NCBI GenBank assembly: GCA_030613505.1
Contig: JAUWLW010000009.1
Coordinates: forward strand, 1,110-65,109
DNA from: Candidatus Zixiibacteriota bacterium
Lineage (GTDB): Bacteria; RBG-13-66-14; B26-G2; WVWN01
DNA: 64,000 nt
Direction of reading: 5' to 3'
The notes below the pieces were generated by a model. That model was not told the DNA's origin. It did not search any database and saw nothing but the letters and a program-made list of their open reading frames with translations. The position numbers were made by a program, and so were the translations under genes. This document shows, one piece after another, positions 3,001 to 54,096 of this stretch (within the stretch, counting starts at the first letter, position 1; the number at the start of each line of letters is the position of its first letter).

Positions 3001-4137
3001 GTGCCCAACAACTTCAACGGCAAGGCCGTGGTGCAGCTTTTCGACCGGCCTTGGTACTTCTACAGCGGCGACATGGACAGGGACATCTACCGGGACCGGT
3101 TGCTCGCTACGACGGATGTCGAGGTCTTGAACGGCCGCTTCGACGCGACGTTGGTCGTGCCGACGATGCCCGTCAATCCTATCCCGAGCTTCGACGCCGG
3201 GCCTCCCGTTGCCGCGGGAGAAGCGGCTCCGGCGGGGGCGGCGTCCGCGGCGGCCGATAACGCGGCCGCGGCCGCGGAGGGGGCCGGACCGCCGGCGCCG
3301 GCCGCGGCGTCGCCGTACCGCGTCCCGTCGCTCGCGCCCGTCGCCGAGGACGGCGTAGTTCACGTTAAAGCCGTGGCTTACGGGACCGGCTTCCGCCGGG
3401 TATACGTCTGCAACGAGGACGTAACGGTCAACGTGGCAGGGGAGGTTAGCTCCGGCGACAACGTCGGCCCGGATATCGACGTCTACTTGAACGATTATTC
3501 CTTCCGCAGCGGCGACCCCACCGACCCGACCCCCACGCTTCTGGTCGACGTGCGCGACGAGAGCGGCGTCCTCGTCGCGCGCAACCTCGAGGCCATAGAT
3601 AAGGATAAGGGCGAGAGAACCTTCGTGCCCTTCTCCGCCCGCATAACTAAACCCGACCCCAAATCGACGCCGACCGTTCTGGACCTCACTTATTATTACA
3701 AGGCCAAGGTGGGCGATTACCGCGGCGGCTCGGTGGAGAAAGAGATTTCGCTGGCAGACGGCGTGAGTACAATCGCCGTGACGGCGTACGACAGCTTGGG
3801 CAATAAGAGCCAGCGGAAGGTCCAATGCGTCGTGAGCGGGGCGTTGGGCATGGCGGAAGTGATGAATTGCCCGAACCCGTTCAAGGACGATACCTACTTC
3901 ACGTTCGTAGCCTCGAGCGACGTCGACAGCCTGGTCATTAAGATCTACACCGCCACCGGGCGCTTGATCCAGAAATTGGAAACCGGCGGCCTGCCGGCGG
4001 GCTACAACCAGATCCACTGGGACGGCCGCGACGGCGACGGCGACCGCATAGCCAACGGCGTTTACTTCTATAAAATCATCGCCCGGGCCGGCGGTGAGAA
4101 GATCGTCGCCCGGCAGAAGATGTTTAAACTGAGGTAG
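1..4137 (+). CDS. Peptidase C25 (gingipain-like) family cysteine protease, 5'-partial. It has an Ala/Pro-rich linker and a C-terminal FlgD-Ig/T9SS-CTD-like sorting domain.
   Basis: The reading frame is open from nt 1, so the gene starts upstream of the window. No signal peptide is visible. C25 catalytic dyad context is present: 'HYAGHGGPQVW' (His) and 'IIQCSCSTAYFD' (Cys). The N-terminus resembles a gingipain propeptide. A low-complexity linker 'AAGEAAPAGAASAAADNAAAAAEGAGPPAPAAASP' is present. The last ~90 aa ('CPNPFKDDTYFTF...ANGVYFYKIIARAGGEKIVARQKMFKLR') match the C-terminal domain shared with the proteases at 8642, 50503 and 52348. Confidence 0.7.
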   Translation, partial: ATGDVGEPELLMRRVHVAAPPEAHVSVEVERVSFDVRTGVDLYPRPRLKVEERHGEQTLSEEFAYDAVAYREGTYPAKFAELEGEDVMRGYRLISVAVYPYQYQPAAGTLRVVKSVVVRVSFRGGVRRPNARYPARPAEDGIFTRVVPAVVLNHEVASRWPFAGGIAPARDGDVWPTDFAGKAAVKVVVEEEALYRLSYAELKATGLPVDTLNPANLRFFAGPAKRLPRDFNYEPPGLTELPIYVAGQGDGRFDASDYVEFYGHGCDFFEHIEPGENGAQKFSKNRFTRYNFYWLVADAVPGKRMTAAAVAPTGGTKPAYFWDRLRLEEDNQDVAETENAILEEDEYWYWRIFNAPTGPSRIKSFTFKDPVNGAGAPKTYLQIMVREQEGLEGNGPHHTIVYLNYPDKNHIIFEEDNYKADVETYFHRRFPSRHLIDGQNRLYFEEVGDRAPIDFIMLDHFEFEYPRHFRAYQDYLHFSNPPGTNGKVLFEIPGFTTDDLVVYDVTRGRRLAAFEVKAAGNEYTLRFTDDIPSGQRWYVAASPSAARKPRDVYLDAGSKLRDVDENVDLVVVVYDGYYDNVMPLVNLRRAAGLNVLVARVTDVYDEYSWGLYDPGATRLLVKDVYRKAIYRPGGELPDHLFLVGDAYLDHRDNYGNFANRELWREFGRNQVPTYYINTSSSGRTSSDNYFVAMSASLAPDLAVGRFPAPFDDNIDAIVEKVVAYERHAANGPWNNRVILVADNDDKTESGGGRGDFTRDNENLEEEFTPLGFEVRKEYIEWLTRRFPVDRIEETGFDFMSRGERQYWVGRIMKPDFLKGFNGIIMHYAGHGGPQVWSHENLFLHHKDLPPVDDVDALENAPYLPVIIQCSCSTAYFDQWYGTENEPLDFGQCISEYILQVPRKGGVAALGSTRLGYEGAQHAFLQSFYGYVFPKKKARWSGVTVGEAHLVGKIKVGETIRDMFVLLGDPSMTLATPRPGLKLTPNKAKVKRGEKVKVAGTVPNNFNGKAVVQLFDRPWYFYSGDMDRDIYRDRLLATTDVEVLNGRFDATLVVPTMPVNPIPSFDAGPPVAAGEAAPAGAASAAADNAAAAAEGAGPPAPAAASPYRVPSLAPVAEDGVVHVKAVAYGTGFRRVYVCNEDVTVNVAGEVSSGDNVGPDIDVYLNDYSFRSGDPTDPTPTLLVDVRDESGVLVARNLEAIDKDKGERTFVPFSARITKPDPKSTPTVLDLTYYYKAKVGDYRGGSVEKEISLADGVSTIAVTAYDSLGNKSQRKVQCVVSGALGMAEVMNCPNPFKDDTYFTFVASSDVDSLVIKIYTATGRLIQKLETGGLPAGYNQIHWDGRDGDGDRIANGVYFYKIIARAGGEKIVARQKMFKLR

Positions 4138-4150
4138 CGTGGTAAACGAT

Positions 4151-5128
4151 ATGAAACCGTTATTTATTGCCGCGGTCCTTCTCGCGATAGCGGCGGCGAG
4201 CGCAAATGCCGACGAAAATAAATACGCCGCCGATTGGATGACGTACGGCGCCGGCGCCCGGGCGCTGGGGATGGGCGGCGCGTTCGTCGCCGTGGCCGAC
4301 GACGCTACGGCCGCCTATTGGAACCCAGCCGGGATGCCCTCGGTGGAGCGGGCCGCCTTCTCCGCCATGCACTCCTACACCTTCAACGGCCTCGCCGCGT
4401 ACGACAGCATTTACGGCGCGTATAACCTCGGCAAGTACGGCGCCGTGGGCGGCGGCCTGTTGATGTGCGCCGTCGACGATATTCCCATTACGGGCTGGAA
4501 CGACCCCGAATCGCCGAACAGGAGGCCCGTGTTGAAAGGGTACGCGGATTCGGGGGATTACGCCGTATACGGCTCGTACGGCCGCGAGTTGTTGCCCAAG
4601 TTTAACGTCGGCGCGAGCGGCATCTTTATAATGGGCCGGCACCTGGAAGACTTCGAAGAAGACGCCAACTCCTCCGGCCAGGCGCTCGACGTCGCGGCCA
4701 AGGCGGGCCCGTTCGGGCCGTTCACCGTCGGCGTGAACGTCCAGAATATATATTCCAATCTGAAATGGGATACCGGTAAGAAAGAGACGATTCCCACCAA
4801 CGTCAAGTTGGGCGGAGCGTACCGGCGCGCGGTCTCGAAGTGGGACAGCGAGTTCACGCTGGCCGCGGACTGCAACGTCAAGTTCGCGGGCTACGACTTC
4901 GCCTCTCAGCTCGCCGCGGGCGACGCGAGCTTCGACTTCTGCGGCGGCGGCGAGTGGTGGTACCGGAGGACGGTAGCGGTGCGATTGGGGAGCGAGCGTT
5001 CCGCCTTGACCGGCGGCGTGGGGCTCGCGGTGAGGGCGCTGGGCGCTTCCTTCGGCATCGACTACGCTTTTCTCTCTGACACCGGGCTCGAGTCCAGCCA
5101 CCGGGCGTCGGCCTCGGCCGCCTTCTAG
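4151..5128 (+). CDS. Outer-membrane beta-barrel protein, PorV/FadL-like (candidate shuttle for CTD cargo).
   Basis: Signal peptide 'MKPLFIAAVLLAIAAASANA'. Signature motif 'GAGARALGMGGAFVAVADDATAAYWNPAGM', which I recall from PorV(LptO)/FadL-like barrels. Alternating amphipathic strands. Ends in a C-terminal Phe (beta-signal). It lies 2 nt downstream of the C25 gene stop. A GTG at 4139 is an alternative start. Confidence 0.5.
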   Translation: MKPLFIAAVLLAIAAASANADENKYAADWMTYGAGARALGMGGAFVAVADDATAAYWNPAGMPSVERAAFSAMHSYTFNGLAAYDSIYGAYNLGKYGAVGGGLLMCAVDDIPITGWNDPESPNRRPVLKGYADSGDYAVYGSYGRELLPKFNVGASGIFIMGRHLEDFEEDANSSGQALDVAAKAGPFGPFTVGVNVQNIYSNLKWDTGKKETIPTNVKLGGAYRRAVSKWDSEFTLAADCNVKFAGYDFASQLAAGDASFDFCGGGEWWYRRTVAVRLGSERSALTGGVGLAVRALGASFGIDYAFLSDTGLESSHRASASAAF

Positions 5129-8154: not shown

Positions 8155-8619
8155 ATGCGGAAAGCGTTTGTTGGGCTAGCGGCTTTACTCGCGACGTGGG
8201 TCGCGGCTGCGTCGGCGGCGATGCTGCCAATTACGACCGCTGAGCTGGCGGACCACGCGACGTTGGTCGTCGCGGGGACGGTGGAAGACGTGACGTCGTA
8301 CGCGCCCGACGCCGCCGGGATAATTTTCTCCGAGGCGAAGGTTAGGGTCGGCGATACGGCGGTAGGGTCGAACGCGGACGAGTACGTTACGGTGCGGTAC
8401 ATGGGCGGCGAATACGGCGGCCTGGCGCTCGTAATTATGGAAGAGGCGACGTTCGAGGTCGGCGAAGAGGTAGTTCTGTTCCTCGCCCCCGTAGACGGCG
8501 GCGCGTACAAGTGCCCGGACGGCGCTCAGGGTAAAATGTCGGTGGTTGACGGAACCGTTCTACCGGCCGGAAAAACGTTAAACCAATTCTTGGCCGAGGT
8601 AGCGGCCGCGGGCCGTTAG
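8155..8619 (+). CDS. Small secreted hypothetical protein (154 aa), first gene behind the Fur-box promoter.
   Basis: Signal peptide 'MRKAFVGLAALLATWVAAASAA'. Strong RBS. I recognise no domain. Confidence 0.55.
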   Translation: MRKAFVGLAALLATWVAAASAAMLPITTAELADHATLVVAGTVEDVTSYAPDAAGIIFSEAKVRVGDTAVGSNADEYVTVRYMGGEYGGLALVIMEEATFEVGEEVVLFLAPVDGGAYKCPDGAQGKMSVVDGTVLPAGKTLNQFLAEVAAAGR

Positions 8620-8641: not shown

Positions 8642-9853
8642 ATGAAGAAGGTATTTTTAATCGCTTTGATTATAGCCATAGCGGCGCCGGCGTTCGGCTT
8701 TAAGGTCTTCTATTACGGCGGCAAGATAGTAAAGCACGGTGAGGAGCAGATCCCCTGGACGATGAGGTTCAACAACCTCGGCACGCCGGACTGCGCGAAA
8801 GAGTTCGCCGCGCTGGCTTCGTCGCTTAATACCTGGTCCAACGTTACCAAGCAGTGGTACCGCAACAAACGCGGCGTTAATACGAGCACTATCAATTACG
8901 GCTACGACGGCGTTAACCTCTGCGTTTGGTATGAGCCCGGATACTCGGGTCAGGGAGGCTGGCCGTGGGCGGCGGGCGCCATCGCCGTGAACATCTTCTG
9001 GATGACGGACGCCGGTACGTTTTATAAGGTAGTCGAAAACGACGTCTGCTTCAACGGCCATAACTTCACCTGGTCCGACAAGGGCGAGGTGTACCGGATG
9101 GATGTCCAGAACATAGCGACCCACGAATTCGGTCACAACCTCGTCCTGGCCGATTTGTACGACGCCGCCTCGCGGGATTTTACGATGTACGGTTACGCGT
9201 CTACCGGCGAGACGAAGAAGCGTACGCTGCATCAGGACGATATAAACGGCATCCGATTCTTATATCCCAACGACGAAATTACGCTGGAGTCGTTCACCGC
9301 GACGGCGCGCGAGGGCCGGGTGCTGGTGGCGTGGAAGGTCTCGCGCGAGGAGAACCACGCCGGCTACAACCTCTACCGCTTGGAGGACGTGGGGGGCGGC
9401 GCCGACTACGTGAAATTGAACGAGGCGCTGATCGTAGGGCGCTCGCCGTACGAGTTTGAAGACGGCGGCGTGAAAGCGGGCACGGCGTACAAGTACCTGC
9501 TGGAGTCCGTGGACCTGAGCGGCGGCAAGGAGCGCTTCGGGCCGGCGCGGGTGGAGGTCCCGACGGCGCAGAAGCGGGTATTCGCGCTGGCGCAGAGCTA
9601 CCCCAACCCGGCGCGGACGGCGGCGACGATAAAGTTCGCGCTGCCGGAGGCGACGACGGCCGAGCTGGAGGTATACGATTTGAGCGGCCGGCGGGTGGCT
9701 ACGCTGTACTCCGGTGCGGCGGAGGCCGGGGAACGCGAGGTGGTGTGGAACCTGGCGGGCGACGACGGCTCCGCGGTGGCGCCCGGGGTGTACATATACC
9801 GGCTGCGGACGCCGGGCGACGTCGCCGCGCGCCGGCTGGTCGTGGCCCGGTAA
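8642..9853 (+). CDS. Secreted metzincin-like zinc metalloprotease with a C-terminal FlgD-Ig/T9SS-CTD-like domain.
   Basis: Signal peptide 'MKKVFLIALIIAIAAPAFG'. Variant metzincin motif 'HEFGHNLVLAD' (HExxHxxxxxD, lacking the canonical Gly) with a downstream Met-turn candidate 'FTMYGY'. The C-terminal ~90 aa ('YPNPARTAATIKFALPEATTAELEVYDLSGRRVATLY...GVYIYRLRT') and the preceding ~100 aa domain are homologous to the C-termini of the M14 paralogs. Confidence 0.65.
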   Translation: MKKVFLIALIIAIAAPAFGFKVFYYGGKIVKHGEEQIPWTMRFNNLGTPDCAKEFAALASSLNTWSNVTKQWYRNKRGVNTSTINYGYDGVNLCVWYEPGYSGQGGWPWAAGAIAVNIFWMTDAGTFYKVVENDVCFNGHNFTWSDKGEVYRMDVQNIATHEFGHNLVLADLYDAASRDFTMYGYASTGETKKRTLHQDDINGIRFLYPNDEITLESFTATAREGRVLVAWKVSREENHAGYNLYRLEDVGGGADYVKLNEALIVGRSPYEFEDGGVKAGTAYKYLLESVDLSGGKERFGPARVEVPTAQKRVFALAQSYPNPARTAATIKFALPEATTAELEVYDLSGRRVATLYSGAAEAGEREVVWNLAGDDGSAVAPGVYIYRLRTPGDVAARRLVVAR

Positions 9854-10512: not shown

Positions 10513-11238
10513 ATGAGGACAGTAAACGTCATAAAAAGAGTTACGGCGGCCGCCGTTCTGATATCAGTTATGATGCTGGGCTTGGCTTGCTACGAACGTT
10601 TCATCGTCATTCAGGTGAAGAAGCCGCCCGAAATCGACCCGTCGGTGTACAAGCGGGTCGGCGTGCTGCCGTTCGAGGGCGAGGAGGACGAGGGCCTTTT
10701 GGCCTCGAAGGCGGTGCGCGAGAAGATGGCGGCTGAGGAAAATTTCCTCGTCGAACCCGCCGAGACGGTCGAGGCCGCCCTCGACCGGGTCGATTTCTTC
10801 GATCCGTCGAGTAGGGACCAGGCCGTGGCTTTAGGCGCCGAGTTGGGGGTGGACGCGGTGCTCATCGGCGAAGTCGAATTTATACAGCGGACCTATAGCC
10901 CGGAGGGCGACGTCCGCAACGAGCTCTACACCGCGGATCGCCGGGCGATAGCTCCGTTCGAGCTCGGGACGTCGTACGCCACGCGGTACATGGACGTGAA
11001 TTTAAGGTATACCTTGCGGCTGACCGTCAAAGCGCTCGACGTCAGGACGGGGCGTTTGATGCGCCGGCGGGAATTCGAAGCGACGACGATGAATACCTAT
11101 AAACAACGCGAAGTTACCGAGGCCTCTTTTAAGGAAAAAGAGATCTTCGATGAGCTGCTCGAAGAAGTTGTGGATGACTTCGTATACACGCTCCAACCCC
11201 ACGACGTGGCACAGACGCGTGAAGTTGCGAGGTTTTAA
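10513..11238 (+). CDS. Lipoprotein with a TolB-N/LpoB/CsgG-like alpha/beta domain. Hypothetical.
   Basis: Lipobox 'LGLAC'. 'VGVLPFEGEEDEG...LGAELGVDAVLIGEV' resembles small periplasmic lipoprotein domains that dock on envelope machines. Its 3' end overlaps the start of the next gene by ~20 nt. Confidence 0.4.
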   Translation: MRTVNVIKRVTAAAVLISVMMLGLACYERFIVIQVKKPPEIDPSVYKRVGVLPFEGEEDEGLLASKAVREKMAAEENFLVEPAETVEAALDRVDFFDPSSRDQAVALGAELGVDAVLIGEVEFIQRTYSPEGDVRNELYTADRRAIAPFELGTSYATRYMDVNLRYTLRLTVKALDVRTGRLMRRREFEATTMNTYKQREVTEASFKEKEIFDELLEEVVDDFVYTLQPHDVAQTREVARF

Positions 11239-14200
11239 ATACAAACTGGCATGGGCCTTGGCTCTCGGGGTCGTTTTTACCGCCGCGCGCGCGGCGGCTT
11301 TCGGTAAGTCCGTCGTCCGCAACGAGAAGTTGTCCTGGCGGATCCTGCCCACCGAACATTTCGACATCTATTACTACGAGGAGGAAGATTTTCTCCTCGA
11401 TTGGGGGGCCGAGATTGCCGAGGACGCCTACATCAAGATGTCGGACGAGCTGGGGTACGATTTGAATAAGCGTATCCCGATAATAATTTTCATGTCGGCG
11501 CGCCATTTCGAACAAAACAACATAAGTCCGGTATCGGGGGAGGGCGTGGGCGGTTTTTCGGAACCGCTTAAGAGCCGCCTCGTGATGCCGTACAACGGCT
11601 CCCAGCGCCAGTTCGAGGATACCATGGTCCACGAAATGGTGCATATCTTCCAATTTAACATGCTGTTCCCGACCATGGGCGCGGTATTTACGGCCGCGGC
11701 GCCGCCGGACTGGTTTATGGAGGGGATGGCTACCTACTACGGTAACGATATCGATCCGGAAGGCGAGATGGTCTTGCGCGACGCCGTCATGAGCGAGAGC
11801 GTCCCCGACCTCGAGCGACTGAACGATTTCCGGTATTTACCCAGCCCGTACCTCGGTTATAAGCTAGGCCAGTCGGTAATGGTGTATTTAGTCGAGACGT
11901 ACGGCGACGACGCACCGGCCGAGCTACTGCGGGCGTTCGGCGGCACGACGTTGAGGAGGCCCGATACCGCTCTGGACGACGCGTTCGGCATCAAGCTCGC
12001 CGACCTCAGCGAGGATTGGAAGGTTTGGCTCCGGCGACGCTATTGGCCTCTTATAGGCGAAAAGGACCAGCTCAAGGATTTCGCGACCGAGCTGACGCCC
12101 AAAGATGACAGGCGCGATTATATTACGTATTTCAAGCCGAAGTGGTCGCCCTCGGGCGATTTGGTGGCGTGCCTAACGGTCAAGGAGCGCTTCCTGGACA
12201 TCTTCCTCGTGAACGCCGAGACCGGCGAGAGGTTCGAGAATCTCACCAAGGGTTATTCGCTGTCGAAGTACGAGTACATAATGTATTTGCAGAACGGCCT
12301 CAGCTGGTCCCCGGACGGCAACTTTATCGCTTTCGTCGGCAAAAAGGGAACCTACGACCAGATATTCATATTGAACGTTTTCAACCGCAAGATCGCTCGG
12401 CGCTATAACCCCGAGTTCGAGGATGTCCTCTCGCCGGCGTACTCGCCCGACGGGACCAAGATCGCTTTCGCCGGCATCAAACGCGCGAAGAGGGATATCT
12501 ACGTTCTGGACGTGGCGTCGGGCGCGATTACGCCCGTTACCGACGACTTCTACTCCGACGGCTATCCCAATTGGTCGCCGGACGGCGAGTACATTTACTA
12601 CGCCTCCGAACGGCAGACGTTCCACAACATATTCCGCGTACGGCCCGACGGCACGGGCCGGGAGCAGATCACCTTCGGCGATCACGAGAACGTTTCGCCC
12701 GCGGTATCCCCCGACGGCTCGCGGTTGATGTTCGTATCGGACCGCGCGGACGGCATCTTCAATATTTTCGCGATGGATTTGGAGACACGGGACTTAGGCC
12801 GGTATACCGACGTCGTGACCGGCGTTATGGACGCGGCCTGGTCCCCCGACGGCGAGACCATAGCGTTTACGTCTTTCGAGAACATGACGTATTCCATCTG
12901 GGCCATGCCGTGGCGGAACGAGCCGGTGGCGGAGGTCGCGCTCGAGCGTCCGGAGCCGGGCGACTACGGGTACGCGGAGTGGCTGGCGCGGCGCGGCGAC
13001 CGGGGCGAGGGCGGGGATGAAGTCGAACTGTCGGTCGGCGGTGAACCCGCGGGCGTTGCCGTGGCCTTCGCCGGCGAGGAGGAATCGGGGGCGGGCGCCG
13101 GCGGCGAGGAGAGCGAGGCCGGCGAGGAGGAGGAGCTCGAGCCGCCGACGGTCCGGGACCTCGTCGTTTCCGATATCGTGGCCGACTCGCGGAAGTACGG
13201 CATCAAGTTCAGCCCCGATTACCTCTACACGACGTTTTCCTATACCTCGGGCGGCATTTTGGCCAACTATACCGTATTCGGTTTGAGCGACATCCTCGGC
13301 AGCCACCGCATCGACATCCTCTTCGATTTGACAACCATCGGCTCTTTTAACGATTTAAGCCTCGCGTTGGATTACTATTACATGACGAGGCGCACGTCGT
13401 ACGTCTTCTCGGCGATAACCTGGCGGGATTGGTATGTAGCTAACGAGATCGGCTTCGACGAGCGCCTTTCGGGCGGGTCGGCGGTCGCCTATTATCCGTT
13501 GAACATGAGGAACCGGGTGGGCGTCGGCCTTTACGGTCACCACCGCCGGCGGATATACTATGACTACGAGCTGGAAAAGGAGATACCGTCCCGGGACGAC
13601 AATATGTTGGGCGCGTTGGCCAGTTTCACCCGCGATACGTCGCAGTGGGGGTACTATCACCCCACCGCGGGCACCCGTTTGGCCTATACCGTCCGCCAGA
13701 CGGTGCCGGCCACGTCGCAATCGTTGTATTATACCGAACAGATCCTCGACGCCCGGCGGTATATTAGGATATCCCGGCGGATTAGCCTGGCTTTCCGGGC
13801 CGCGGCCGGCCTCGGCTCCGGCCGCGCCCCCGAGAACTTCTTCATAGGCGGCGGCTCGACGCTGCGCGGCTACCGTTACGACGAGATCTACGGCACGCGT
13901 TTCGGCCTGGGCAGTTGCGAGTTCCGGTTCCCGATCGTCGATTACGTCGTGTGGCCCATAGAGGGTTTCGCCATCGGCGGTTTCCGCGGCCTTTTCTTCG
14001 TAGACCTCGGCTCCGCGTGGGCGGACTACGACAACGAGTCCATCTACCCCGACGACCGCCAGTGGCACACCGACGACGAGGACCTCGAATACGACCGCTT
14101 CACGTTCGCCACGTCCGAAGGCGGGTGGCACCTGGTCCACGGCAAGATGGCGTTCGGGACCGGTTTCAGGTGGTGGCTGGGGTACTTCGACCTGAAGTTC

Positions 14201-14278
14201 GATTGGGGTTGGCGCACTAACCTCCGCGACGTGGAGAAGCCGCCGCGCTTCCACTTCACGCTGGGCGCCGATTTCTAA
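11219..14278 (+). CDS. Multidomain outer-membrane protein: N-terminal gluzincin-like peptidase, TolB-like PD40 beta-propeller, acidic linker, and C-terminal Omp85-family beta-barrel.
   Basis: Start chosen at GTG 11219, giving the signal peptide 'VKLRGFKYKLAWALALGVVFTAARAAAFG'. The ORF is open from 11150. 'HEMVHIFQ' plus downstream 'FMEGMATYY' form an HExxH...E gluzincin motif. Repeated 'WSPDG/YSPDG/VSPDG' PD40 blades are present. Acidic linker 'GEEESGAGAGGEESEAGEEEELEPP'. The C-terminal ~340 aa carry Omp85 hallmarks 'GGGSTLRGYRYDEIYGTRFGLGSCEFRFPI', 'GGFRGLFFVDLGSAW' and a terminal '...FHFTLGADF' beta-signal. Confidence 0.7.
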   Translation: MKLRGFKYKLAWALALGVVFTAARAAAFGKSVVRNEKLSWRILPTEHFDIYYYEEEDFLLDWGAEIAEDAYIKMSDELGYDLNKRIPIIIFMSARHFEQNNISPVSGEGVGGFSEPLKSRLVMPYNGSQRQFEDTMVHEMVHIFQFNMLFPTMGAVFTAAAPPDWFMEGMATYYGNDIDPEGEMVLRDAVMSESVPDLERLNDFRYLPSPYLGYKLGQSVMVYLVETYGDDAPAELLRAFGGTTLRRPDTALDDAFGIKLADLSEDWKVWLRRRYWPLIGEKDQLKDFATELTPKDDRRDYITYFKPKWSPSGDLVACLTVKERFLDIFLVNAETGERFENLTKGYSLSKYEYIMYLQNGLSWSPDGNFIAFVGKKGTYDQIFILNVFNRKIARRYNPEFEDVLSPAYSPDGTKIAFAGIKRAKRDIYVLDVASGAITPVTDDFYSDGYPNWSPDGEYIYYASERQTFHNIFRVRPDGTGREQITFGDHENVSPAVSPDGSRLMFVSDRADGIFNIFAMDLETRDLGRYTDVVTGVMDAAWSPDGETIAFTSFENMTYSIWAMPWRNEPVAEVALERPEPGDYGYAEWLARRGDRGEGGDEVELSVGGEPAGVAVAFAGEEESGAGAGGEESEAGEEEELEPPTVRDLVVSDIVADSRKYGIKFSPDYLYTTFSYTSGGILANYTVFGLSDILGSHRIDILFDLTTIGSFNDLSLALDYYYMTRRTSYVFSAITWRDWYVANEIGFDERLSGGSAVAYYPLNMRNRVGVGLYGHHRRRIYYDYELEKEIPSRDDNMLGALASFTRDTSQWGYYHPTAGTRLAYTVRQTVPATSQSLYYTEQILDARRYIRISRRISLAFRAAAGLGSGRAPENFFIGGGSTLRGYRYDEIYGTRFGLGSCEFRFPIVDYVVWPIEGFAIGGFRGLFFVDLGSAWADYDNESIYPDDRQWHTDDEDLEYDRFTFATSEGGWHLVHGKMAFGTGFRWWLGYFDLKFDWGWRTNLRDVEKPPRFHFTLGADF

Positions 14279-14543: not shown

Positions 14544-14629
<86 letters not shown>

Positions 14630-14649
14630 AATTTTTCGCGGGATTCCCG

Positions 14650-14913
14650 ATGGCGTCTCGAGCCGATAAAATACGGTTGTTGGTCGCCGGCCTGGTGGCC
14701 AGGCCTCGTCTCGAGGGTTACCTCTCGAGCCGGCGCGTGCGCCTCGAGCCCCGCCAGGAGCGCTTCTTCGACCGGCCCTTCATGTGCCTGCTCGAGGAAC
14801 GCGGCGCGCTGGTGCCGGTTACGGTGGCGTTCGGCGAGGAGGAATGGGACGCGGCGGCGGCCGCCGCCGAGAGGGCCGGCGTCGAGGCCGACGCCCTCGG
14901 GATAAAAAACTGA
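14650..14913 (+). CDS. Hypothetical small protein between the two tRNA-Ser genes.
   Basis: ORF with ATG at 14650 ('MASRADKIRLLVAGLV...'). The longer version in the track would start inside the tRNA. No recognised domain. It may not be a real gene. Confidence 0.25.
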   Translation: MASRADKIRLLVAGLVARPRLEGYLSSRRVRLEPRQERFFDRPFMCLLEERGALVPVTVAFGEEEWDAAAAAAERAGVEADALGIKN

Positions 14914-14931: not shown

Positions 14932-15020
14932 GGAGAGGTGTCCGAGCGGCTTAAGGAGCACGCCTGGAGAGCGTGTGGGCCCGTTGGGCCTCGTGGGTTC
15001 GAATCCCACCCTCTCCGCCA
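14932..15020 (+). tRNA. tRNA-Ser (anticodon GGA), with encoded CCA.
   Basis: Acceptor stem GGAGAGG/CCTCTCC, identical to the first tRNA. Anticodon stem-loop 'cacgc CTGGAGA gcgtg'. Long variable arm. T-arm 'gtggg ttcgaat cccac'. 3'-GCCA. Confidence 0.8.
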
Positions 15021-18717: not shown

Positions 18718-19503
18718 CTAGACGCGCGATTTGACGCGGCTTCGTCGGCGTCGGACGATTTCGCCGGCGAGGCGCATGTACGCTTGCGCACCCGCCGACC
18801 GGCCGTCGAAGGTGATGGCCGGTTTTCCGCTGGCGGGCGCTTCGGCCAAAGCTACGCTCCGGGGTATTACGGTTTTGAATACGAGCCTGCCGAAGCGGCG
18901 GCGAAGGTCGCTCTCGACTTCGTGGGCGAGTTTCGTCCGCTCGTCATACATCGTCAACAAAAACCCCTCGATTTCGAGGTCGGGATTTACGCTGAGGCGG
19001 ACTGTTTTGACGAGGCGGATAAATTGATCGAAGGCGTGGTAGGAATAAAATTCCGCTTGCACGGGGATTAGGACGGAATCGGCTGCGACGAGCGCCGATA
19101 CCATCAAATGCCCCATACTCGGCGGCGAATCCATTATTATGTATTCGTAGTCGTCGTCGAGTTCTTCCACCGAGCGGGCGAGCATAGTGCGGTTGAGGGA
19201 GGTCCGCATTATCTCGTCTTCGGCGTTGTTCGACCAGATGTTGTTGGGTATGACGTAGAGGTTGGGTATTTCGGTCTCGTGTATGCTGCCGGAGGCGGGG
19301 AAGTTGCGCATGAATATCTCGTACACGCCGCGGTAGAGCAAATCCTGGTTGAAGTCCAACGCCACGCTGGCACAGGCTTGGGGGTCGAGGTCGACGAGAA
19401 GCGTATTTTTCTCCGCGACCGCGAGCGAGGCGCTCAAGTTCACCGCGGTGGTAGTCTTCCCGACGCCGCCTTTTTGGCTGGCTACGGCGATTTTACGTGC
19501 CAT
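18718..19503 (-). CDS. ParA/Soj-family ATPase (orphan; no parB in the window).
   Basis: Deviant Walker A 'ASQKGGVGKTTTAVNLSASLA'. 261 aa. It lies immediately downstream of, and co-oriented with, the giant coiled-coil gene. Confidence 0.8.
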   Translation of the reverse strand: MARKIAVASQKGGVGKTTTAVNLSASLAVAEKNTLLVDLDPQACASVALDFNQDLLYRGVYEIFMRNFPASGSIHETEIPNLYVIPNNIWSNNAEDEIMRTSLNRTMLARSVEELDDDYEYIIMDSPPSMGHLMVSALVAADSVLIPVQAEFYSYHAFDQFIRLVKTVRLSVNPDLEIEGFLLTMYDERTKLAHEVESDLRRRFGRLVFKTVIPRSVALAEAPASGKPAITFDGRSAGAQAYMRLAGEIVRRRRSRVKSRV

Positions 19504-19534
19504 TAAGGTATAAGCTCCCGGCTCGCTGGTTGGG

Positions 19535-22500
19535 TTAGGCCGGCGGTTTGGTTTCGCTTGTGCGCTTCAGCGCTTCGTTTAAGATGACGTCGGAGCGCGC
19601 GAGTTTTTTCTGCAGGTCGTCGAGGCGGTCGCTGGTCGATTTTAAATTCGCCATTTTGGCGTCGATGTCTTTGGCGAGAAAGCTCACTTGGGCGAGCTTT
19701 TCGGCGACGGCGTCCACCCGTTTTTCTTCGTTCCGCAGCTGGCCCATTTTCTCTTCCAGGGCCGCCGCGGCGCGATTTATCTGTTCGAACCTGGCCTCGA
19801 CTTTCTTGAGGTCGGCGCGTTTGGCGTTCACGTCGCGAACGGCCGCGGCGACGTCTTTGCGCGTCTCCGAAAGTTCGCTTAGCTGGCCCCGGATCTGGTT
19901 TATGGCCTCCGCCTCGCCCTTGAGGTCCGTCATACCGTCTTGGACCAGGTCGTAATAGGCTTTGAGGTCGCGGACTTCGCGTTCGACCGCCGCCACTTCG
20001 TCCCGCCGTTGGCCCAGGACGCGCAGGCGTTCGTCGAGGTCTTCGGCCAACATGGTGAGGGCGTTCACGCGTTCGTCGACGGCGACGATGTCCTGGCTCC
20101 GCCGCTCGACGAGGGTGGCTTTGCGGGTCGCTTCCTGGGAGGCATCCAGGATCTTCTCGAGGACGCGATTGACTTCTTTCTCCGTATCAGCGGCTTGCGC
20201 GGCGTGGGAGGAGACGCGGTCGTTGACGTCCGTTACCTCGGCGCGGAGCTCTTCGATCTTTTCCACTTCGCCGGCCAGCTCGTGCCTCAACTTGCCCTGG
20301 GCCGCCAGGGCTTTTTCGACCGCGGCGGCGCTCTCCTCGAGGGTGACGACTTTTTCGGCCAGGCGGTCGATCTCCTTCTCGGATTTGAACGTTGCCCGAC
20401 GTTTGTCATCGAGAAGGGAGAGGTCTCGGTTGAGGTCGTCGAGGCGGGAGCTCAGCGCGTCGAGTTTGGCGTCCTCGCGGAGTACCGTCATCATGCGCCC
20501 GTCGATGTCTTTGAGGAGAGTGTCGATTTTTACGGTCTTGTCGTGGACGCTGGTAACCAGCTCCTCGCGGAGCCGGATCTCCTCCTGGCGTCGTTCGACT
20601 TGCTCGAGCGCTCCCTGCACGGATTTGTTCATACGGGCGAAATCTTCTTGCGTTCGGCCGCGTTCCGTCCGATATTCGCCGAGTTCGCGCGACGCGGCCT
20701 CGGATACGCGGCCAAGCTCCTCCTGCGCCTTTTGAATATTCTTGATCTCCTGCGCCGCGGCCTCGACCCTGCCTGCGTCGGCCGTTATCTCGCGGATTTT
20801 ATTTTCGACCTCGTCGAGGCGAGAGGCTCGAGCGGTGAAGGCCGCTTCGCGCGCTTTGTTCTCCGAGATTTGGTCGGCGACGGCGCGGGACATCGCGTCC
20901 GCCTCGGCCAGCCGCGTCTCGAGCATGCCGATTTTATCGTGTAATTTCTCCATCGCAGGCGCTTGGGCTTGGACTTCGGCCAGGTCCGCCTTGACGGCCC
21001 GGAGCACCTCAGCTCGGTTATCTATGGCTTCCAGGGACGCTTCGGCTTCGTCCAGTTTGCTTTCGGCGAAGCCTAGTTTGCCGACGAGGTCTTCGGCGGT
21101 GCGCGATACCTTGTCGAAGTCGGCCCGGACGGTGCGGAACTCGGCCATCTGGCGTTCGAACGTCGCCACTTCGCGTGCGAAATCCTCTTGGCGGCCTTCG
21201 ACATCGGCCAGCTTTTCCCGGATGCCTTGAACTTCGCGGAAGCGGTCGCGCGTTTCGGCCAGCGTCTCCTCCAGGTCGGCGACGCGCTTTTCGCCGTCGC
21301 GCACCATCTTCTGTTCTTCGGCCAGCTTCTTGATCCGAACGTCCATTTCCCACAGCAGGACGTCGAGCTTACCCGACTCCTCGTTGGCCTTGGTGATAAG
21401 TTCGCGTTGGTCTTCCAGCACGTGGATCTTGGTATTGATATGTTCGATAAGCGCGTTTAAGCGGTCGACGTTTTGCGACGCTTCGGTGTAGCGTTCGCGC
21501 TCGAGGCGGAGGGCGCCGAAATCCTCTTGGATTTTAGCGAGCGATTTATCGAGGGTTTGAGCTCGGTCGGCCGCGTTGTTAAGCTCCTTCTGAGCCGCTC
21601 CGAAGCGAGTGTTGAAGTCGCCGAGTTTTTCGTCGATGCCGTTCATTTTCCCGAGTACGGCGTCGGCGCGTTTTTCGGCGCCGGCGAGCTCGGCGACGCG
21701 CTTTTCGAAGCCCTCGACTTTCTGGTCGATCTTAGTCGTACGGCCGGCCAGCGCGCCCACGCGACGTGAAGCGTCACTTACGCCGGCGTCGGCGTCTTTG
21801 AGCTCTTTGTGGATGTTATCTAGCGAACTTTTTACGCCGGCTACGTCTTCGCGGTACTTTTGGGCTTCGCCGCGGACGCGATTGAGCTCGCTCTGGGCAG
21901 CTTTACCCTCGGCGGCAGCTTCTTTCGCCGCTTGGGTCGTGGTTTCGATCCGGGTTTTTATGGCGTCGATATTTTTCGCGGCCCTGGCTGCCTCGCTTAG
22001 TTTGCTCTCCAGGGGGGCGATTTTCGTGGCGACCTCTTCGGCCCGTTCGCGCAGCGTTTCCGTTTTGTTAGATAACGTCGTGATGGTTTTGGCGCGCTTC
22101 TCGAGTTGACCCAAGCCGCCCTCGATGTCCTTTAGGCGGTGTTCGATTCCGTCGCTCGAGATTTTGAGGGTACCCTTAAGGTTGGACAACGCGGTGGTTT
22201 GTTGGTCGGCAGTTTTTTTAGTATCGGCCAGCGACGATTTGATTTCGGCAAGGGTTTGTTTATTGGCTTCGTTAACCTTGGCGGTCTTTTCGGCGGCGGC
22301 ACCTGCGGCGCGGAGCTCGGCGCGGAATTCGGTCATTCGGCCGGCGGCTTTTTCAACGTTGTCCAGTTTGGCCCGGGCGGCGGCGATATCCTTTTCGACC
22401 GCTTTTAACTTCTTGGCCTGGTCGCCCACGCCTGCTACGTCTTTTTTGACGGATTTCAGCTCGGCATCGGCCCGGCCTATGCCCTGCACCGCGGTTTTGA

Positions 22501-50502: not shown

Positions 50503-52254
50503 TTAACGAGTGATTACCAATCGCCGGTTTAGCGTTCCGTTGGCCGTTCGGAGGCGGTAGACGTAAACGCCGGGCGCCAGCGGCCGGCCCGCCTCGTCGG
50601 CTACGTTCCAGGCGATCTCTTTGGCGCCGGCGGCGGCGTGGCCTTCGTAGAGGGTCCGTATTTTGCGGCCGGCGTAGTCGTAGACCTCGAGCGCGACGGC
50701 CCCGGGTTGGGCCAGCTCGAACTTGATGGTCGTGGCGTCTCGGGCCGGGTTAGGCCGGTTCTGATAAAGGGCCGCGCCTTTCGGCAGCGCCTTGCCCGAC
50801 GCCCGCCCCTTGACCGGGCCGAAGGTCGACGTTTCCCCCTTCAAGTCCACGCCCTCGAGCAGGTACTCGTAATCGCGGCCCGCTTCGACGCCCCGGTCGA
50901 CGTAGTTATATGGCGAGCGGCCGGCGACGAGGTTCTCGTTGAGCTTCGCGTAATCGACCGTCGCCGGTCCTTCCGCGGTCGGCCGGCGGTAGAGGTTGAA
51001 GCCCGCCACGTCGCGTTCGTTCGCGACTTCCCAATGAAGCGTTACGCCGCCGGCGGCGGCCTCGGCCCGGAACGACGTTACGTTTACGGGTAACTCCGAA
51101 AAGCCGAGCTTAAGGAGTTTGAGAAGCACCGGATATTGTTCGGCGCAGGTGATGGGGATTTGGTAGGCCGGCGGTTGTTGGGAGGTATCGATCTCGAACG
51201 TGAAGCCCCAGCACTTGTCGTGGCCTTTACCGTCGTATTCCCAATCGCACGCCGTCCCGCTCCCCAGGTAGCGCAACGTTTCCCAGAAATTGCCGTGCCG
51301 CCACCCCGATAAAGTTTCTATGAGATATAACGAGACGTTTTTGAAGTACGTATAATCGGGCTCGGGGGGATGGCCGTAATCGTGGTTCCAGGGATACATG
51401 CAATATCGGCCGGACGAGTGATAATTTAGGGCGTAATTAAACTGGTGTTCGTTGCTATTGACGAGGTCGCGGATAGCTTGGGTTTCCGGTTCCGAAAAGG
51501 CGTAGGGGCCGCAATAGGTAGAGGCGTTCGGGTTGTGACTGCACCCCGGTACTTTACCCCACTCGTAGTCGTAATTACGGTTGAGGTCGACGCCGTAGCT
51601 CCCGCCGCCGTTGTCTCGGCGGTTTTTTCGCCACCTGTTGTAAACCTTGAAGACGTGGTTGTGGCCGTCAGGGTTAAGCATGGGGATTATCCAGGTCTCG
51701 ACGTTATCGACTATCAGCTTGACGTCGGGATCGGTCGGGTATTTCTCGCATAATTTCTTGGCGAGGTAAAGCGGCACCTCGACCGTCATGATCTCGTTGG
51801 CGTGGTGGTTGCCGTCTATGAGGATATCCTTTTCGGCTGCCTCGTGCGTCGCGACGTTGTCTGATATCTTCAGCGCCCAGATTTCGCGTTTCTCCCACGT
51901 ATCGCCGACGTCGTAGAGCCTGCAGATATTCGGGTAGGTGCTGGCGAGCCCTTGTAATATGGAAACCATCTCGTCGTACTCGGTATACTCGGAGGGCGGC
52001 GCGTCGGCGGTATCGATTTCGTCCAGAACGTCGTAGGAGATACTTTTAAGGCCAAGGACGGCGAGGTCGTCGGCCGACGCGTATAGGTCAAAGTGACCGG
52101 CGGCGTCCGCCCCGGCGACGTCGAAATCGTAGCGTCGCAGGTCGGCCATAAGGCGAGCCGGGTCGGCGTACGCGCGCGTTAAGTAAACGGTATCCGCGGC
52201 GGCTCCCGCGGCCAACGCAGCGACCACGGTTACAAATAATACTACGCTTTTCAC
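50503..52254 (-). CDS. Secreted M14 zinc carboxypeptidase with a C-terminal FlgD-Ig/T9SS-CTD-like domain (paralog 1).
   Basis: Signal peptide. 'GNHHANEIMT' HxxE zinc site. 'MLNPDGHNHV'. The C-terminal '...YQNRPNPARDATTIKFELAQPGAVALEVYDYAGRKIRTLY...GVYVYRLRTANG' domain is present. Confidence 0.8.
   Translation of the reverse strand: MKSVVLFVTVVAALAAGAAADTVYLTRAYADPARLMADLRRYDFDVAGADAAGHFDLYASADDLAVLGLKSISYDVLDEIDTADAPPSEYTEYDEMVSILQGLASTYPNICRLYDVGDTWEKREIWALKISDNVATHEAAEKDILIDGNHHANEIMTVEVPLYLAKKLCEKYPTDPDVKLIVDNVETWIIPMLNPDGHNHVFKVYNRWRKNRRDNGGGSYGVDLNRNYDYEWGKVPGCSHNPNASTYCGPYAFSEPETQAIRDLVNSNEHQFNYALNYHSSGRYCMYPWNHDYGHPPEPDYTYFKNVSLYLIETLSGWRHGNFWETLRYLGSGTACDWEYDGKGHDKCWGFTFEIDTSQQPPAYQIPITCAEQYPVLLKLLKLGFSELPVNVTSFRAEAAAGGVTLHWEVANERDVAGFNLYRRPTAEGPATVDYAKLNENLVAGRSPYNYVDRGVEAGRDYEYLLEGVDLKGETSTFGPVKGRASGKALPKGAALYQNRPNPARDATTIKFELAQPGAVALEVYDYAGRKIRTLYEGHAAAGAKEIAWNVADEAGRPLAPGVYVYRLRTANGTLNRRLVITR
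50556..51204. repeat. ~650-bp segment ~97% identical to 52401..53049 (3' third of the tandem M14 genes).
   Basis: Direct comparison of the two stretches shows only scattered single-nucleotide differences at a constant offset of 1845 nt. Additional short identical blocks occur near 51780-51900 and 53620-53740. Confidence 0.8.
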
Positions 52255-52280
52255 GCCGTCACCTCCTCGGGGTAACCGTT

Positions 52281-52317
52281 AAAAAAGCCCGGTTCGGCGC
52301 GAGCGCCGCCGGGCTTT
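52281..52317 (-). terminator. Rho-independent terminator of M14 paralog 2.
   Basis: On the minus strand: GCCCGGCGGCGCTCGCGCCGAACCGGGC followed by TTTTTT. Confidence 0.65.
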
Positions 52318-52347
52318 CGTCATTATTATCTGTTAGGTCGTCTCAAG

Positions 52348-54096
52348 TTAACGGGTTACGACCAAGCGCCGACTGAGCGTTTCGGCGCTCGTCCGCAGCC
52401 GGTAGACGTAAACGCCGGGCGCCAGCGGCCGGCCCGCCTCGTCGGCTACGTTCCAGGCGACCTCTGTGGCGCCGGCGTCGGCGTGGCCTTCAAAAAGCGG
52501 CCGTATTTTGCGGCCGGCGTAGTCGTAGACCTCGAGCGCGACGGCCCCGGGTTGGGCCAGCTCGAACTTGATGGTCGTGGCGTCTCGAGCCGGGTTAGGC
52601 CGGTTCTGATAAAGGGCCGCGCCTTTCGGCAGCGCCTTGCCCGACGCCCGTCCCTTGACCGGGCCGAAGGTCGACGTGCCCCCCTTCAAGTCCACGCCCT
52701 CGAGCAGGTATTCGTAGTCGCGGCCCGCCTCGGCGCCGCGGTCGACGTAGTTATACGGCGAGCGGCCGGCGATGAGGTTTTTGTTGAGCTTCGCGTAATC
52801 GACCGGCGCCGGCCCTTCCGCGGTCGGCCGGCGGTAGAGGTTGAAGCCCGCCACGTCGCGTTCGTTGGCGACTTCCCAGTGAAGCGCTACGCCGCCGGCG
52901 GCGGCCTCGGCCCGGAACGACGTTACGTTTACGGGTAACTCCGAAAAGCCGAGCTTAAGGAGTTTGAGGAGCACCGGATATTGTTCGGCGCAGGTGATGG
53001 GGATTTGGTAGGCCGGCGGTTGTTGGGAGGTATCGATCTCGAACGTGAAACCCCAATCTTTGGGGTGGCCTTTACCGTCGTATTCCCAGTCTACGGCGTT
53101 GCCGGAGGCCAAGTAGCGAAGGATTTCCCAGTCGTTGCCGTGCCGCCAGCCTGGCAAGGTCTCGAGCAGGTACGTCGCGACGTTCTTGTAATACGTGTAA
53201 TGGGGCTCCGGCGGGTGGCCGTAGGTATAAGCCCACGGGTAGAGCATGGCCCGGCCGGAGGAGTGGTAGTTTAACGTATACGCGAATTGGTGGTTAACGT
53301 CGTTGATGAGGTCCCGGATCGCCTGGTTCTCCGGTTCGGAAAAAGGGGAGGGGCCGCAGTAAGTCCTATCATTGGGGTTATGGCTCGCGCCGGATTCGCC
53401 CCAGTGATAGTCGTAGTTGCGGTTGAGGTCGACGCCGTAGATGCCGCCGCCGTTGTCGCGGCGGTTCTTACGCCACCTGTTATCCTCCGTGAAAACCCAG
53501 TTGTGGCCGTCCGGGTTGAGCATGGGGATTATCCATGTCTCGACGTTATCGACTATCAGCTTCACGCCGGGGTCGGTCGCGTATTTCTCGCACAAGTTCT
53601 TGGCGAGGTAAAGCGGCACCTCGACCGTCATGATCTCGTTGGCGTGGTGGCAACCGTTTATAAGGATGTCTTTCTCCGCCGTCTCGTGCGTCGCGACGTT
53701 GTCTGATATCTTCAGCGCCCAGATTTCACGCTTCTCCCAGGTGTCGCCGACGTCGTAAAGTTTACAAATATTGGGGTAGGTATTCGCGAACCCTTGCAAT
53801 ATCGGTACCATCTCATGGTACTCAGTGTACTCCGGAGGAGGTGCGTCGGAGGTATCGATTTCGTCCAGAACGTCGTAGGAGATACCTTTAAGGCCAAGGA
53901 CGGCGAGGTCGTCGGCCGACGCGTATAGGTCGAAGTGGTCGCCGGGTACGGCGCCGTCTACGTCGAAGTCGTACTCCGCCAGATCGGTCATAAGGCGGGA
54001 CGGGTCCGCGTAGGCGCGCGTCCAATAAAGCGTGTCCGCGGACGCGCCGGCGGCCAGGGCGGTTCCTAAGATTGTGACAACTACTATAGCTCTCAT
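52348..54096 (-). CDS. Secreted M14 zinc carboxypeptidase with a C-terminal FlgD-Ig/T9SS-CTD-like domain (paralog 2).
   Basis: Same motifs as paralog 1 ('NGCHHANEIMT', 'MLNPDGHNWV'). ~75% aa identity over the catalytic domain. Near-identical C-terminal third. Confidence 0.8.
   Translation of the reverse strand: MRAIVVVTILGTALAAGASADTLYWTRAYADPSRLMTDLAEYDFDVDGAVPGDHFDLYASADDLAVLGLKGISYDVLDEIDTSDAPPPEYTEYHEMVPILQGFANTYPNICKLYDVGDTWEKREIWALKISDNVATHETAEKDILINGCHHANEIMTVEVPLYLAKNLCEKYATDPGVKLIVDNVETWIIPMLNPDGHNWVFTEDNRWRKNRRDNGGGIYGVDLNRNYDYHWGESGASHNPNDRTYCGPSPFSEPENQAIRDLINDVNHQFAYTLNYHSSGRAMLYPWAYTYGHPPEPHYTYYKNVATYLLETLPGWRHGNDWEILRYLASGNAVDWEYDGKGHPKDWGFTFEIDTSQQPPAYQIPITCAEQYPVLLKLLKLGFSELPVNVTSFRAEAAAGGVALHWEVANERDVAGFNLYRRPTAEGPAPVDYAKLNKNLIAGRSPYNYVDRGAEAGRDYEYLLEGVDLKGGTSTFGPVKGRASGKALPKGAALYQNRPNPARDATTIKFELAQPGAVALEVYDYAGRKIRPLFEGHADAGATEVAWNVADEAGRPLAPGVYVYRLRTSAETLSRRLVVTR
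52401..53049. repeat. Second copy of the ~650-bp near-identical segment (see 50556..51204).
   Basis: As above. Confidence 0.8.

Follow-up and report, generated by a model that had tools for sequence, protein, structure and literature searches.

Predicted type IX secretion tails on three zinc proteases and a PorU-like protein, next to a PorV-family gene, in an uncultured bacterium

When proteins with unrelated catalytic domains end in the same short domain, it may be a sorting signal for one export route or a generic structural module. This question is raised by four ORFs in the window (the whole stretch of DNA analysed, 64 kb), with stop codons at 4137 and 9853 on the plus strand and at 50503 and 52348 on the minus strand. 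They encode a C25-family protein, a metzincin/M10-like protein and two M14 carboxypeptidases (M14a and M14b), and each ends in a homologous domain of ~85 aa. The preliminary description had reported that the four C-termini align, and this was borne out: the ORFs were confirmed, and 22 columns of the alignment do not vary, among them PNP, the β3-β4 loop G-R, a W, GVY.Y and the terminal R. The C25 tail is 29% identical to the M10 tail over 69 aa (BLASTP, E 1e-11). It was also found by an HMM built from the other three tails only, with a domain E of 1.4e-8 and 37.6 bits, when 1000 shuffles of the C25 tail scored at most 6.3 bits. When all six frames of the 64 kb window were searched with an HMM of the four tails, no further copy came up. 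The region from 3865 to 54096 had been given as one span for four tailed proteases. The tails do lie in that span and the ORFs are four in number, but the tail-bearing genes form two groups ~40 kb apart with housekeeping genes between them. The M14 genes are tandem paralogues, 84% identical, and thus count as one occurrence, so that the tail occurs independently three times and not four.

[quoted passage not shown] With TIGR04183 the M10-like protein scored 43 bits (residues 320–401; CTD at 9599..9850, plus strand), M14a 34.5 (50506..50754, minus strand), M14b 31.1 (residues 500–580; 52351..52599, minus strand) and the C25 protein 29.4 (residues 1282–1353; 3871..4134, plus strand), all above the cutoff of 23. 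On these scores the four tails are T9SS type A CTDs. The matches end 0–16 residues before the stop codon, at the extreme C-terminus of every protein. The modelled tail adopts a seven-strand Ig-like β-sandwich, and its best structural matches are the CTDs of PorU and mirolase. The invariant G-R lies in YD.(S/A)GR and YTATGR, which align with YDFTGR of P. gingivalis PorU. The last strands read RRLVVAR, RRLVITR and QKMFKLR; the basic residue is present, with Arg instead of Lys in the cargo tails.

The tail could instead be a generic FlgD-type Ig-like domain whose role on surface enzymes is adhesion, binding or structure, and not to signal secretion. Pfam leans this way, as FlgD_ig outscores Por_Secre_tail (PF18962) on all four tails, with 50.4 (the C25 tail), 33.1, 29.6 and 25.9 bits against 15.4, 26.8, 23.4 and 21.7 for the same tails in order, the latter all under the gathering score of 27. 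FlgD structures occur among the sequence matches, and many tail homologues are labelled 'FlgD' by JGI. Against this reading, the TIGR04183 cutoff is exceeded by every tail, and the domain is in every case the very last part of a protein with a signal peptide. The N-terminal domain of FlgD and a flagellar gene context are both absent. A profile of the tail with the domain preceding it matched the CTD of P. gingivalis PorU (6za2, residues 1061–1136) at E 1.7e-4, with FlgD structures ranking lower, and the structural matches of the model also favour PorU and mirolase. The nearest homologue is named by NCBI 'T9SS type A sorting domain-containing protein', and relatives in Eisenbacteria and Gemmatimonadetes MAGs carry T9SS domain names; in this CTD-only profile search the 120 matches listed were short fragments of up to 165 aa, from which names could be used and architectures could not. 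With PorU-like and PorV-like genes in the same window as well, a generic Ig-like role appears extremely improbable. FlgD proper was considered separately and rejected: only the Ig-like PF13860 matches, the NCBIfam FlgD equivalogs reach at most 39 bits against cutoffs of at least 230, and the domains are found on C25, M10 and M14 enzymes.

A further ~100-aa domain had been noted in the metzincin and M14 proteins. The three zinc proteases do share such a domain, of ~95 aa, directly upstream of the type A CTD, at 9278..9562 (plus strand) in the M10-like protein, where it was aligned with the M14 copies, and at 50797..51093 and 52642..52938 (minus strand) in M14a and M14b, whose copies are 94% identical. 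The M10-like protein and M14a have only their last 194 aa in common (49% identity, E 6e-53), with no similarity between the catalytic parts; the domain and the CTD appear to have been shuffled as a single cassette among unrelated catalytic domains. The M10 copy has no Pfam match, and for it we infer a fibronectin type III (Fn3) fold from the predicted model of the homologous M14a segment. In the model the spacer contacts the CTD, at a middling pTM. The search profile was built from the three window copies; P0007 was left out (136 match states against ~97, flanking residues included). The domain was found in ~18,000 representative proteins, often in long tandem arrays. It is therefore a generic structural spacer, neither pathway-specific nor part of any special sorting module. 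The proposal that one common module marks a dedicated export pathway is supported for the CTD and not for the domain upstream of it.

The C25 protein (1..4137, plus strand) had been listed as a fourth tailed protease. Its ORF is cut at the 5′ end by the window edge, the frame being open from base 1 with the first in-frame start a TTG at 28, and ~125 N-terminal residues are absent from this copy. Pfam Peptidase_C25 scores 220.9 bits. The T9SS sortase model NF033707 gives 416.8 bits (E 1.6e-124) over profile positions 6–834, narrowly missing its cutoff of 420; the full-length orthologues of two related MAGs, L001 and L002, score 411.6 and 386.8 bits, also below 420, so the low score is not due to the missing 5′ end. 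The best PDB sequence match is P. gingivalis PorU (6za2, E 3.4e-30). The His/Cys dyad is kept, HYAGHGGPQVW corresponding to NYAGHGGPAGW, and the second Cys of IIQCSCS to the Cys of ITATCDF in 6za2. The orthologue in L002 is a protein of 1494 aa with an N-terminal signal peptide.

A gingipain-like secreted protease, and hence a fourth cargo, would account for the gingipain-type propeptide at the N-terminus (Pfam Propeptide_C25, 37.8 bits; Kgp propeptide 5mun_A, E 3e-4) and for the slightly sub-threshold PorU scores of this protein and its orthologues. This reading seems very unlikely beside a PorU-model match of ~830 profile positions. PorU is the sole C25 catalytic-domain structure matched, and the sole gingipain entry is the Kgp propeptide. 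PorU homologues in Cytophagia, Gemmatimonadetes and Stahlbacteria MAGs have alignments starting at query residues 78, 8 and 56, which indicates that they share some or all of the N-terminal extension. The gene also lies directly 5′ of a PorV-family gene, the order of porU and porV in P. gingivalis. Together with the dyad, these features indicate that the 'C25 protease' is most likely a PorU-like T9SS C-terminal signal peptidase/sortase, the enzyme that would remove the tails, rather than ordinary cargo. In a fifth relative, L005 (a Ca. Coatesbacteria chromosome), the match is limited to residues 1–571 of the PorU-like protein, and neither the tail HMM nor the mid-domain HMM gave a score.

The downstream ORF (4139..5128, plus strand), with a likely start at ATG 4151, begins 1–13 nt past the PorU stop codon as read from the junction sequence, and the two genes therefore probably form one operon. 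It matches NF033709 (PorV_fam) at 130.6 bits, above the cutoff of 90, and F. johnsoniae PorV (6h3i_F) in the PDB sequence search at E 6.5e-7. By these matches it is a member of the PorV/PorQ family of outer-membrane β-barrels, and a presumed CTD shuttle. The equivalog cutoffs were missed: 59.3 against 250 for PorV (NF033710), 100.9 against 325 for PorV2 (NF052325) and 34.9 against 220 for PorQ (NF033711). The PorU-PorV adjacency, and the order PorU-PorV-...-M10, are kept in four related MAGs (L001–L004).

Each of the three remaining tailed proteins has the architecture signal peptide, catalytic domain, Fn3-like spacer and CTD. The first putative cargo, a metzincin/M10-like zinc protease of 403 aa (8642..9853, plus strand), matches Peptidase_M10 at 30 bits (gathering score 24) and carries the motif HEFGHNLVLAD; its orthologues occupy the equivalent position in L002 and L003 with 73–75% identity. 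The second and third are zinc carboxypeptidases, M14a (583 aa; 50503..52254, minus strand; Peptidase_M14 239.6 bits) and M14b (582 aa; 52348..54096, minus strand; 242.6 bits), which from their sequences are recent duplicates. On inspection, the N-termini of all three proteins, MKKVFLIALIIAIAAPAFGF for the M10-like protein, MKSVVLFVTVVAALAAGAAAD for M14a and MRAIVVVTILGTALAAGASAD for the third cargo, are typical Sec signal peptides. The linkers before the CTD were compared with the P. gingivalis cleavage rule, T/E/D/N|G/A/S. The M10 linker contains PT|AQ, which agrees with the rule; nothing obvious matching it was seen in the M14 linker. A 'protease secretome' had also been proposed for these enzymes. 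Peptidases make up >20% of the GO-annotated TIGR04183 proteins (PMC11205867), so three proteases in one window are unremarkable and within expectation.

Neither the 64 kb window nor, in L002, the 10 kb on the 5′ side of PorU showed any of the core components PorK/L/M/N, Sov/SprA, PorZ, PorW and PorT. When nearly every gene of the window, and the seven genes 5′ of PorU in L002, were scanned with Pfam or NCBIfam, all other assignments were to housekeeping functions. This absence, the sub-threshold scores of the PorU model and of the PorV, PorV2 and PorQ equivalogs, and a top equivalog score of the barrel with the NCBI 'putative PorV2' model would be expected if the PorU/PorV-like pair and the tails belonged to a reduced or different sorting system, lacking canonical PorKLMN/Sov, in a non-Bacteroidota lineage. 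T9SS genes are normally scattered over the genome, so their absence from 64 kb tells little. T9SS is, moreover, reported across the Fibrobacteres-Chlorobi-Bacteroidetes (FCB) superphylum (PMC11205867, PMC12421860), and the T9SS names of tail relatives in Eisenbacteria and Gemmatimonadetes also speak against such a system, which we regard as distinctly improbable.

The labels of the relatives suggest that the host probably belongs to an uncultured high-GC lineage outside Bacteroidota; the nearest labelled MAGs are named 'bacterium', Ca. Zixiibacteriota and Ca. Coatesbacteria. HisS falls in a tight clade down to ~58% identity, below which matches of ~50% to Zixibacteria, Acidobacteria and Myxococcales are mixed and uninformative. 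A literature search for Coatesbacteria with type IX secretion returned no paper, and one for T9SS distribution in candidate phyla returned nothing specific.

The window thus very probably encodes three T9SS cargo proteins, the M10-like and the two M14 proteases, and two parts of the machine, the PorU-like and PorV-like proteins, in a pathway drawn by homology to Porphyromonas and Flavobacterium. The proteases would enter the periplasm through the Sec system, and the folded CTD would be recognised by the T9SS translocon. The PorV-like barrel would then receive the CTD and bring the cargo to PorU, which would cleave the linker separating the Fn3-like domain from the CTD. The cleaved enzyme could be released, or its new C-terminus joined to a surface glycolipid. 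These steps and the seven-strand Ig-like fold of the CTD are described for known systems (PMC10202324, PMC11285876). The PorU-like protein should keep its own CTD uncut, which would tether PorU to PorV; P. gingivalis PorU likewise has a CTD that is kept uncleaved (PMC10202324). A larger claim, which we hold to be unlikely, is that the lineage has a divergent T9SS attachment module, with a prodomain-bearing PorU, a barrel distinct from PorV, PorV2 and PorQ, and FlgD_ig-like CTDs with Arg-rich ends, and perhaps a reduced or altered core machine. In such a module, the gingipain-type N-terminal prodomain of PorU would suggest intramolecular latency, whereas P. gingivalis PorU is kept latent as a dimer.

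For annotation, 'C25 protease' is here better read as a PorU-like sortase, and pipeline labels of 'FlgD' on such tails are misleading. The window adds one more uncultured lineage, probably non-Bacteroidota, with PorU/PorV and type A CTD cargo, in keeping with the FCB spread, and suggests the export of zinc peptidases for extracellular protein degradation. M14- and M10-type T9SS cargo and the architecture of an Ig-like domain followed by a CTD are already documented, and no new secretion question is opened.

Compared with known type A CTD systems, the host is of an uncultured high-GC lineage and, going by its relatives' labels, non-Bacteroidota. Relative to the type A CTDs known from RgpB and PorZ (P. 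gingivalis) and mirolase (T. forsythia), the window tails fall below the PF18962 threshold and lie nearer to FlgD_ig in Pfam, and the cargo tails finish in RRLV(V/I)(A/T)R, in which Arg takes the place of the conserved Lys of Bacteroidota CTDs. As in P. gingivalis PorU (6za2) and PorV, a multi-domain protein that has a C25 domain, its His/Cys dyad and a CTD of its own is encoded directly upstream of a PorV-family gene; unlike P. gingivalis PorU, the window-type protein has ~290 additional N-terminal residues, including the propeptide domain, and with its orthologues scores 387–417 bits against the cutoff of 420, and the barrel, unlike P. gingivalis PorV, is an equivalog of none of PorV, PorV2 and PorQ. 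In RgpB an Ig-like domain packs directly before the CTD, and breaking the contact blocks secretion (PMC11285876). The window spacer is likewise a predicted β-sandwich before the CTD; it differs from the RgpB domain in being of predicted Fn3 type, from a very large repeat family, with a CTD contact seen in the model only. Among the KLIKK peptidases of T. forsythia, karilysin is an M10-like member. These peptidases, some of them metallopeptidases, and CPG70, the M14 carboxypeptidase of P. gingivalis, are T9SS cargo (PMC11285876). Like them, the window enzymes are zinc peptidases with a type A CTD; their catalytic domains are family-level relatives only, and, unlike CPG70 and the KLIKK peptidases, they carry an Fn3-like spacer before the CTD, in a cassette common to M10 and M14 enzymes at 49% identity.

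Four ORFs possess C-termini that align with one another, as the preliminary description had proposed, and 22 columns of the alignment are invariant. The C25-family protein (Peptidase_C25 220.9 bits, Pfam; + strand) occupies a frame open from base 1 and ending at 4137; counted from position 28, its earliest in-frame start, it has 1369 aa. The M10/metzincin-like protein of 403 aa (8642..9853, +) matched Pfam Peptidase_M10 with 30 bits, and two M14 carboxypeptidases of 583 aa (M14a, 50503..52254, −) and 582 aa (M14b, 52348..54096, −) matched Peptidase_M14 (Pfam; 239.6 and 242.6 bits for the two genes). The C25 and M10 tails are 29% identical over 69 aa (BLASTP, E 1e-11). When an HMM was built from the three zinc-protease tails only, the C25 tail was recovered (domain E 1.4e-8, 37.6 bits), and 1000 shuffles of the same tail scored at most 6.3 bits. 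The tail similarity on which the preliminary description depended is thus significant and, judged from sequence, far exceeds chance. M10 and M14 proteins have only the last 194 residues in common (49% identity, E 6e-53); no relationship between their catalytic parts was seen in this comparison. The M14 genes are tandem duplicates (84% aa identity, 93 nt apart) and hence their tails were treated as one occurrence. Six-frame translation of the whole window yielded no fifth tail copy. The region 3865-54096 is not a single locus; the tail-bearing genes form two groups ~40 kb apart, with housekeeping genes (among them MutL, MetH, Ddl, HisS and HutH) in between.

[quoted passage not shown] All the four tails passed NCBIfam TIGR04183 (T9SS type A sorting domain; cutoff 23 bits) with 43, 34.5, 31.1 and 29.4 bits. 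With Pfam, in which the gathering score is 27 for both families, FlgD_ig (50.4, 33.1, 29.6 and 25.9 bits) outscored Por_Secre_tail on every tail (15.4-26.8 bits, all four under the gathering score). When a profile was made of the C-terminal region common to these proteins, P. gingivalis PorU ranked ahead of every FlgD structure, the match lying in its CTD (6za2, residues 1061-1136, E 1.7e-4). The functional landmarks of a T9SS CTD are a Gly at the start of strand β4 and a basic last strand (PMC11285876; PMC10202324). In these tails, the former is the invariant G-R of 'YD.SGR', and the latter has the sequence RRLVVAR or RRLVITR in the zinc proteases and QKMFKLR in the C25 protein. Since the PorU CTD match ranks first and the published landmarks are present, a T9SS identity is favoured over FlgD. 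The three zinc proteases also have typical signal peptides at their N-termini, as required of T9SS cargo. The nearest database homologue is named 'T9SS type A sorting domain-containing protein' by NCBI, and similar fragments are named 'FlgD' by JGI. Many metagenomic CTD fragments among the listed matches of a CTD-only profile search (P0281-P0400) carry the JGI name 'flagellar hook assembly protein FlgD'. The JGI names look like a systematic mis-annotation due to the Pfam FlgD_ig match.

The further conserved domain of ~95 aa ahead of the tail is indeed shared by the M10 and M14 proteins, but it appears to be a general-purpose Fn3-like spacer rather than a specialised component of the sorting signal. 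Out of 1.84 billion, a profile of its three window copies matched 18,067 representative proteins (E <= 1e-3), and giant proteins with 5-31 tandem copies are common among these. When ten such proteins were scanned with Pfam, the calls were mixed: fn3 in one, RGI_lyase (one) or Ig_J_second (two) over the cutoff in others, and DUF4959 under its cutoff; Por_Secre_tail was located at the end of several. The number of matched proteins, the tandem arrays and the mixed calls all point to a spacer. The 49% identity of this C-terminal region between the M10 and M14 proteins suggests that Fn3 and CTD were shuffled as a single cassette.

All four proteins had been considered secreted cargo. This probably holds for the three zinc proteases, and the C25 protein is most likely the sortase rather than merely a further cargo. 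It matched NCBIfam NF033707 ('type IX secretion system sortase PorU') with 416.8 bits (E 1.6e-124, profile positions 6-834), narrowly missing the curated cutoff of 420 bits. Truncation at the window edge was ruled out as the cause, as full-length orthologues scored 411.6 and 386.8 bits, both under 420. Among solved structures, P. gingivalis PorU is the closest to it in sequence (E 3.4e-30); the His of AGHGGP in PorU is matched by the 'AGHGGP' of the C25 protein, and the Cys of TATC by the second Cys of its 'QCSC'. In P. gingivalis, PorU and PorZ are CTD proteins with unprocessed CTDs, and the PorU CTD remains bound to PorV (PMC10202324), which would explain why the C25 tail diverges more than the other three. 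About 290 residues precede the PorU profile start in these PorU-like proteins (window 1-900, +; L002:9626-10500 in a related MAG contig). This extension holds a gingipain-type propeptide domain (Propeptide_C25 37.8 bits, Pfam; Kgp propeptide 5mun_A, E 3e-4), and the prodomain may be an intramolecular latency device.

The gene 1-13 nt downstream (4139..5128, +) encodes a barrel protein that scored 130.6 bits with the PorV/PorQ family model (cutoff 90) and matched the Flavobacterium PorV structure 6h3i_F (E 6.5e-7); it reached none of the equivalog cutoffs for PorV, PorV2 and PorQ. Because these and the PorU cutoff were missed and the N-terminal extension is present, the two proteins are best termed PorV-family and PorU-like. 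The earlier idea of one dedicated export pathway appears to be right. Four related MAG contigs (L001-L004; PorU identity 68-92%) keep the gene order PorU, PorV, CoaX, ..., small secreted protein, M10 protease, ..., Omp85/TolB-like protein. JAZGGY01 SCS5bin.27 is among the close relatives, with 92% PorU identity. The small protein (8155-8619, +; 154 aa, with signal peptide) ends 22 nt upstream of the M10-like gene and matched no Pfam or NCBIfam family. The pair is kept in L002 and L003 (66-67% identity), and the small protein may serve as chaperone, inhibitor or partner for the protease. The 1042-aa protein (11150-14278, +), whose gene follows that of the M10 protease in L002 and L003 too (75-81% identity), has an unusual architecture. 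Its N-terminal region carries an HExxH motif (MVHEMVH), a TolB-like β-propeller comes next (TIGR02800 141 bits, residues 385-586), and the C-terminal part is an Omp85/BamA-like barrel (TIGR03303 51.7 bits). At a Ca. Coatesbacteria chromosome locus (L005:10001-11710, CP070633.1), the match of an 854-aa ORF to the PorU-like protein is confined to residues 1-571 of the latter (67% identity), the tail and mid-domain HMMs scored nowhere in the locus, and the next long ORF listed lies on the opposite strand. This could reflect a different architecture or an assembly problem.

Elsewhere in the window, a 1181-aa protein (18718-23080, −) directly upstream of a ParA/MinD-like ATPase (AAA_31 170.9 bits) gave only sub-threshold Pfam matches to assorted families (BLOC1_2, Laminin_II and similar), from which it is read as a putative coiled-coil; the two may be a cytoskeletal or partitioning pair. 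Two tRNA-Ser genes with anticodons CGA and GGA (14544-14629 and 14932-15020, +) were found, and a 108-aa ORF overlapping the first (14587-14913) is probably not a gene. A WbaP-like polyprenyl glycosylphosphotransferase (TIGR03025 438 bits) is encoded at 60965-62440 (+); P. gingivalis has a WbaP-type enzyme that supplies A-LPS, to which T9SS cargo is anchored.

Neither in the window nor, for L002, in the 10 kb that precede PorU were further T9SS genes found, which says little since T9SS genes are usually scattered over the genome. The source bacterium is uncultured and has a G+C content of 62%; the genomes closest to it at species level bear the labels 'bacterium', Ca. Zixiibacteriota and Ca. 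Coatesbacteria. HisS gave no phylum assignment: its matches form a tight clade down to ~58% identity, followed at ~50% by mixed phyla (Zixibacteria, Acidobacteria, Myxococcales). NCBI taxonomy places Ca. Zixiibacteriota in the FCB group and Ca. Coatesbacteria among candidate phyla; T9SS is a described feature of the FCB superphylum (PMC11205867, PMC12421860). The genes most likely represent a conventional T9SS arrangement, with PorU and PorV as neighbours and three ordinary protease cargoes. What is new is minor, namely the divergence of PorU and PorV in this poorly classified lineage.

By homology, the proteases would be exported to the periplasm by Sec, the folded CTD would be recognised by the T9SS, and the cargo would be passed to the PorV-like barrel and brought to PorU. 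PorU would then cut in the flexible linker ahead of 'PNPAR', where the pLDDT minimum of the modelled C-terminal fragment of M14a is located (residues 102-104), and the enzyme would be freed or surface-attached (PMC10202324).

TIGR04183 occurs in >238,000 UniProt proteins, and among those with GO annotation metallopeptidases account for ~10% and serine endopeptidases for ~12%, peptidase terms as a whole exceeding 20% (PMC11205867). Known T9SS cargo include the KLIKK peptidases and CPG70 (PMC11285876), the latter an M14 carboxypeptidase like M14a and M14b. [quoted passage not shown] P. gingivalis and T. forsythia are reported to be incompatible with each other in T9SS secretion (PMC11285876). 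For P. gingivalis PorU, dimer latency has been reported, whereas latency of the PorU-like protein may be intramolecular.
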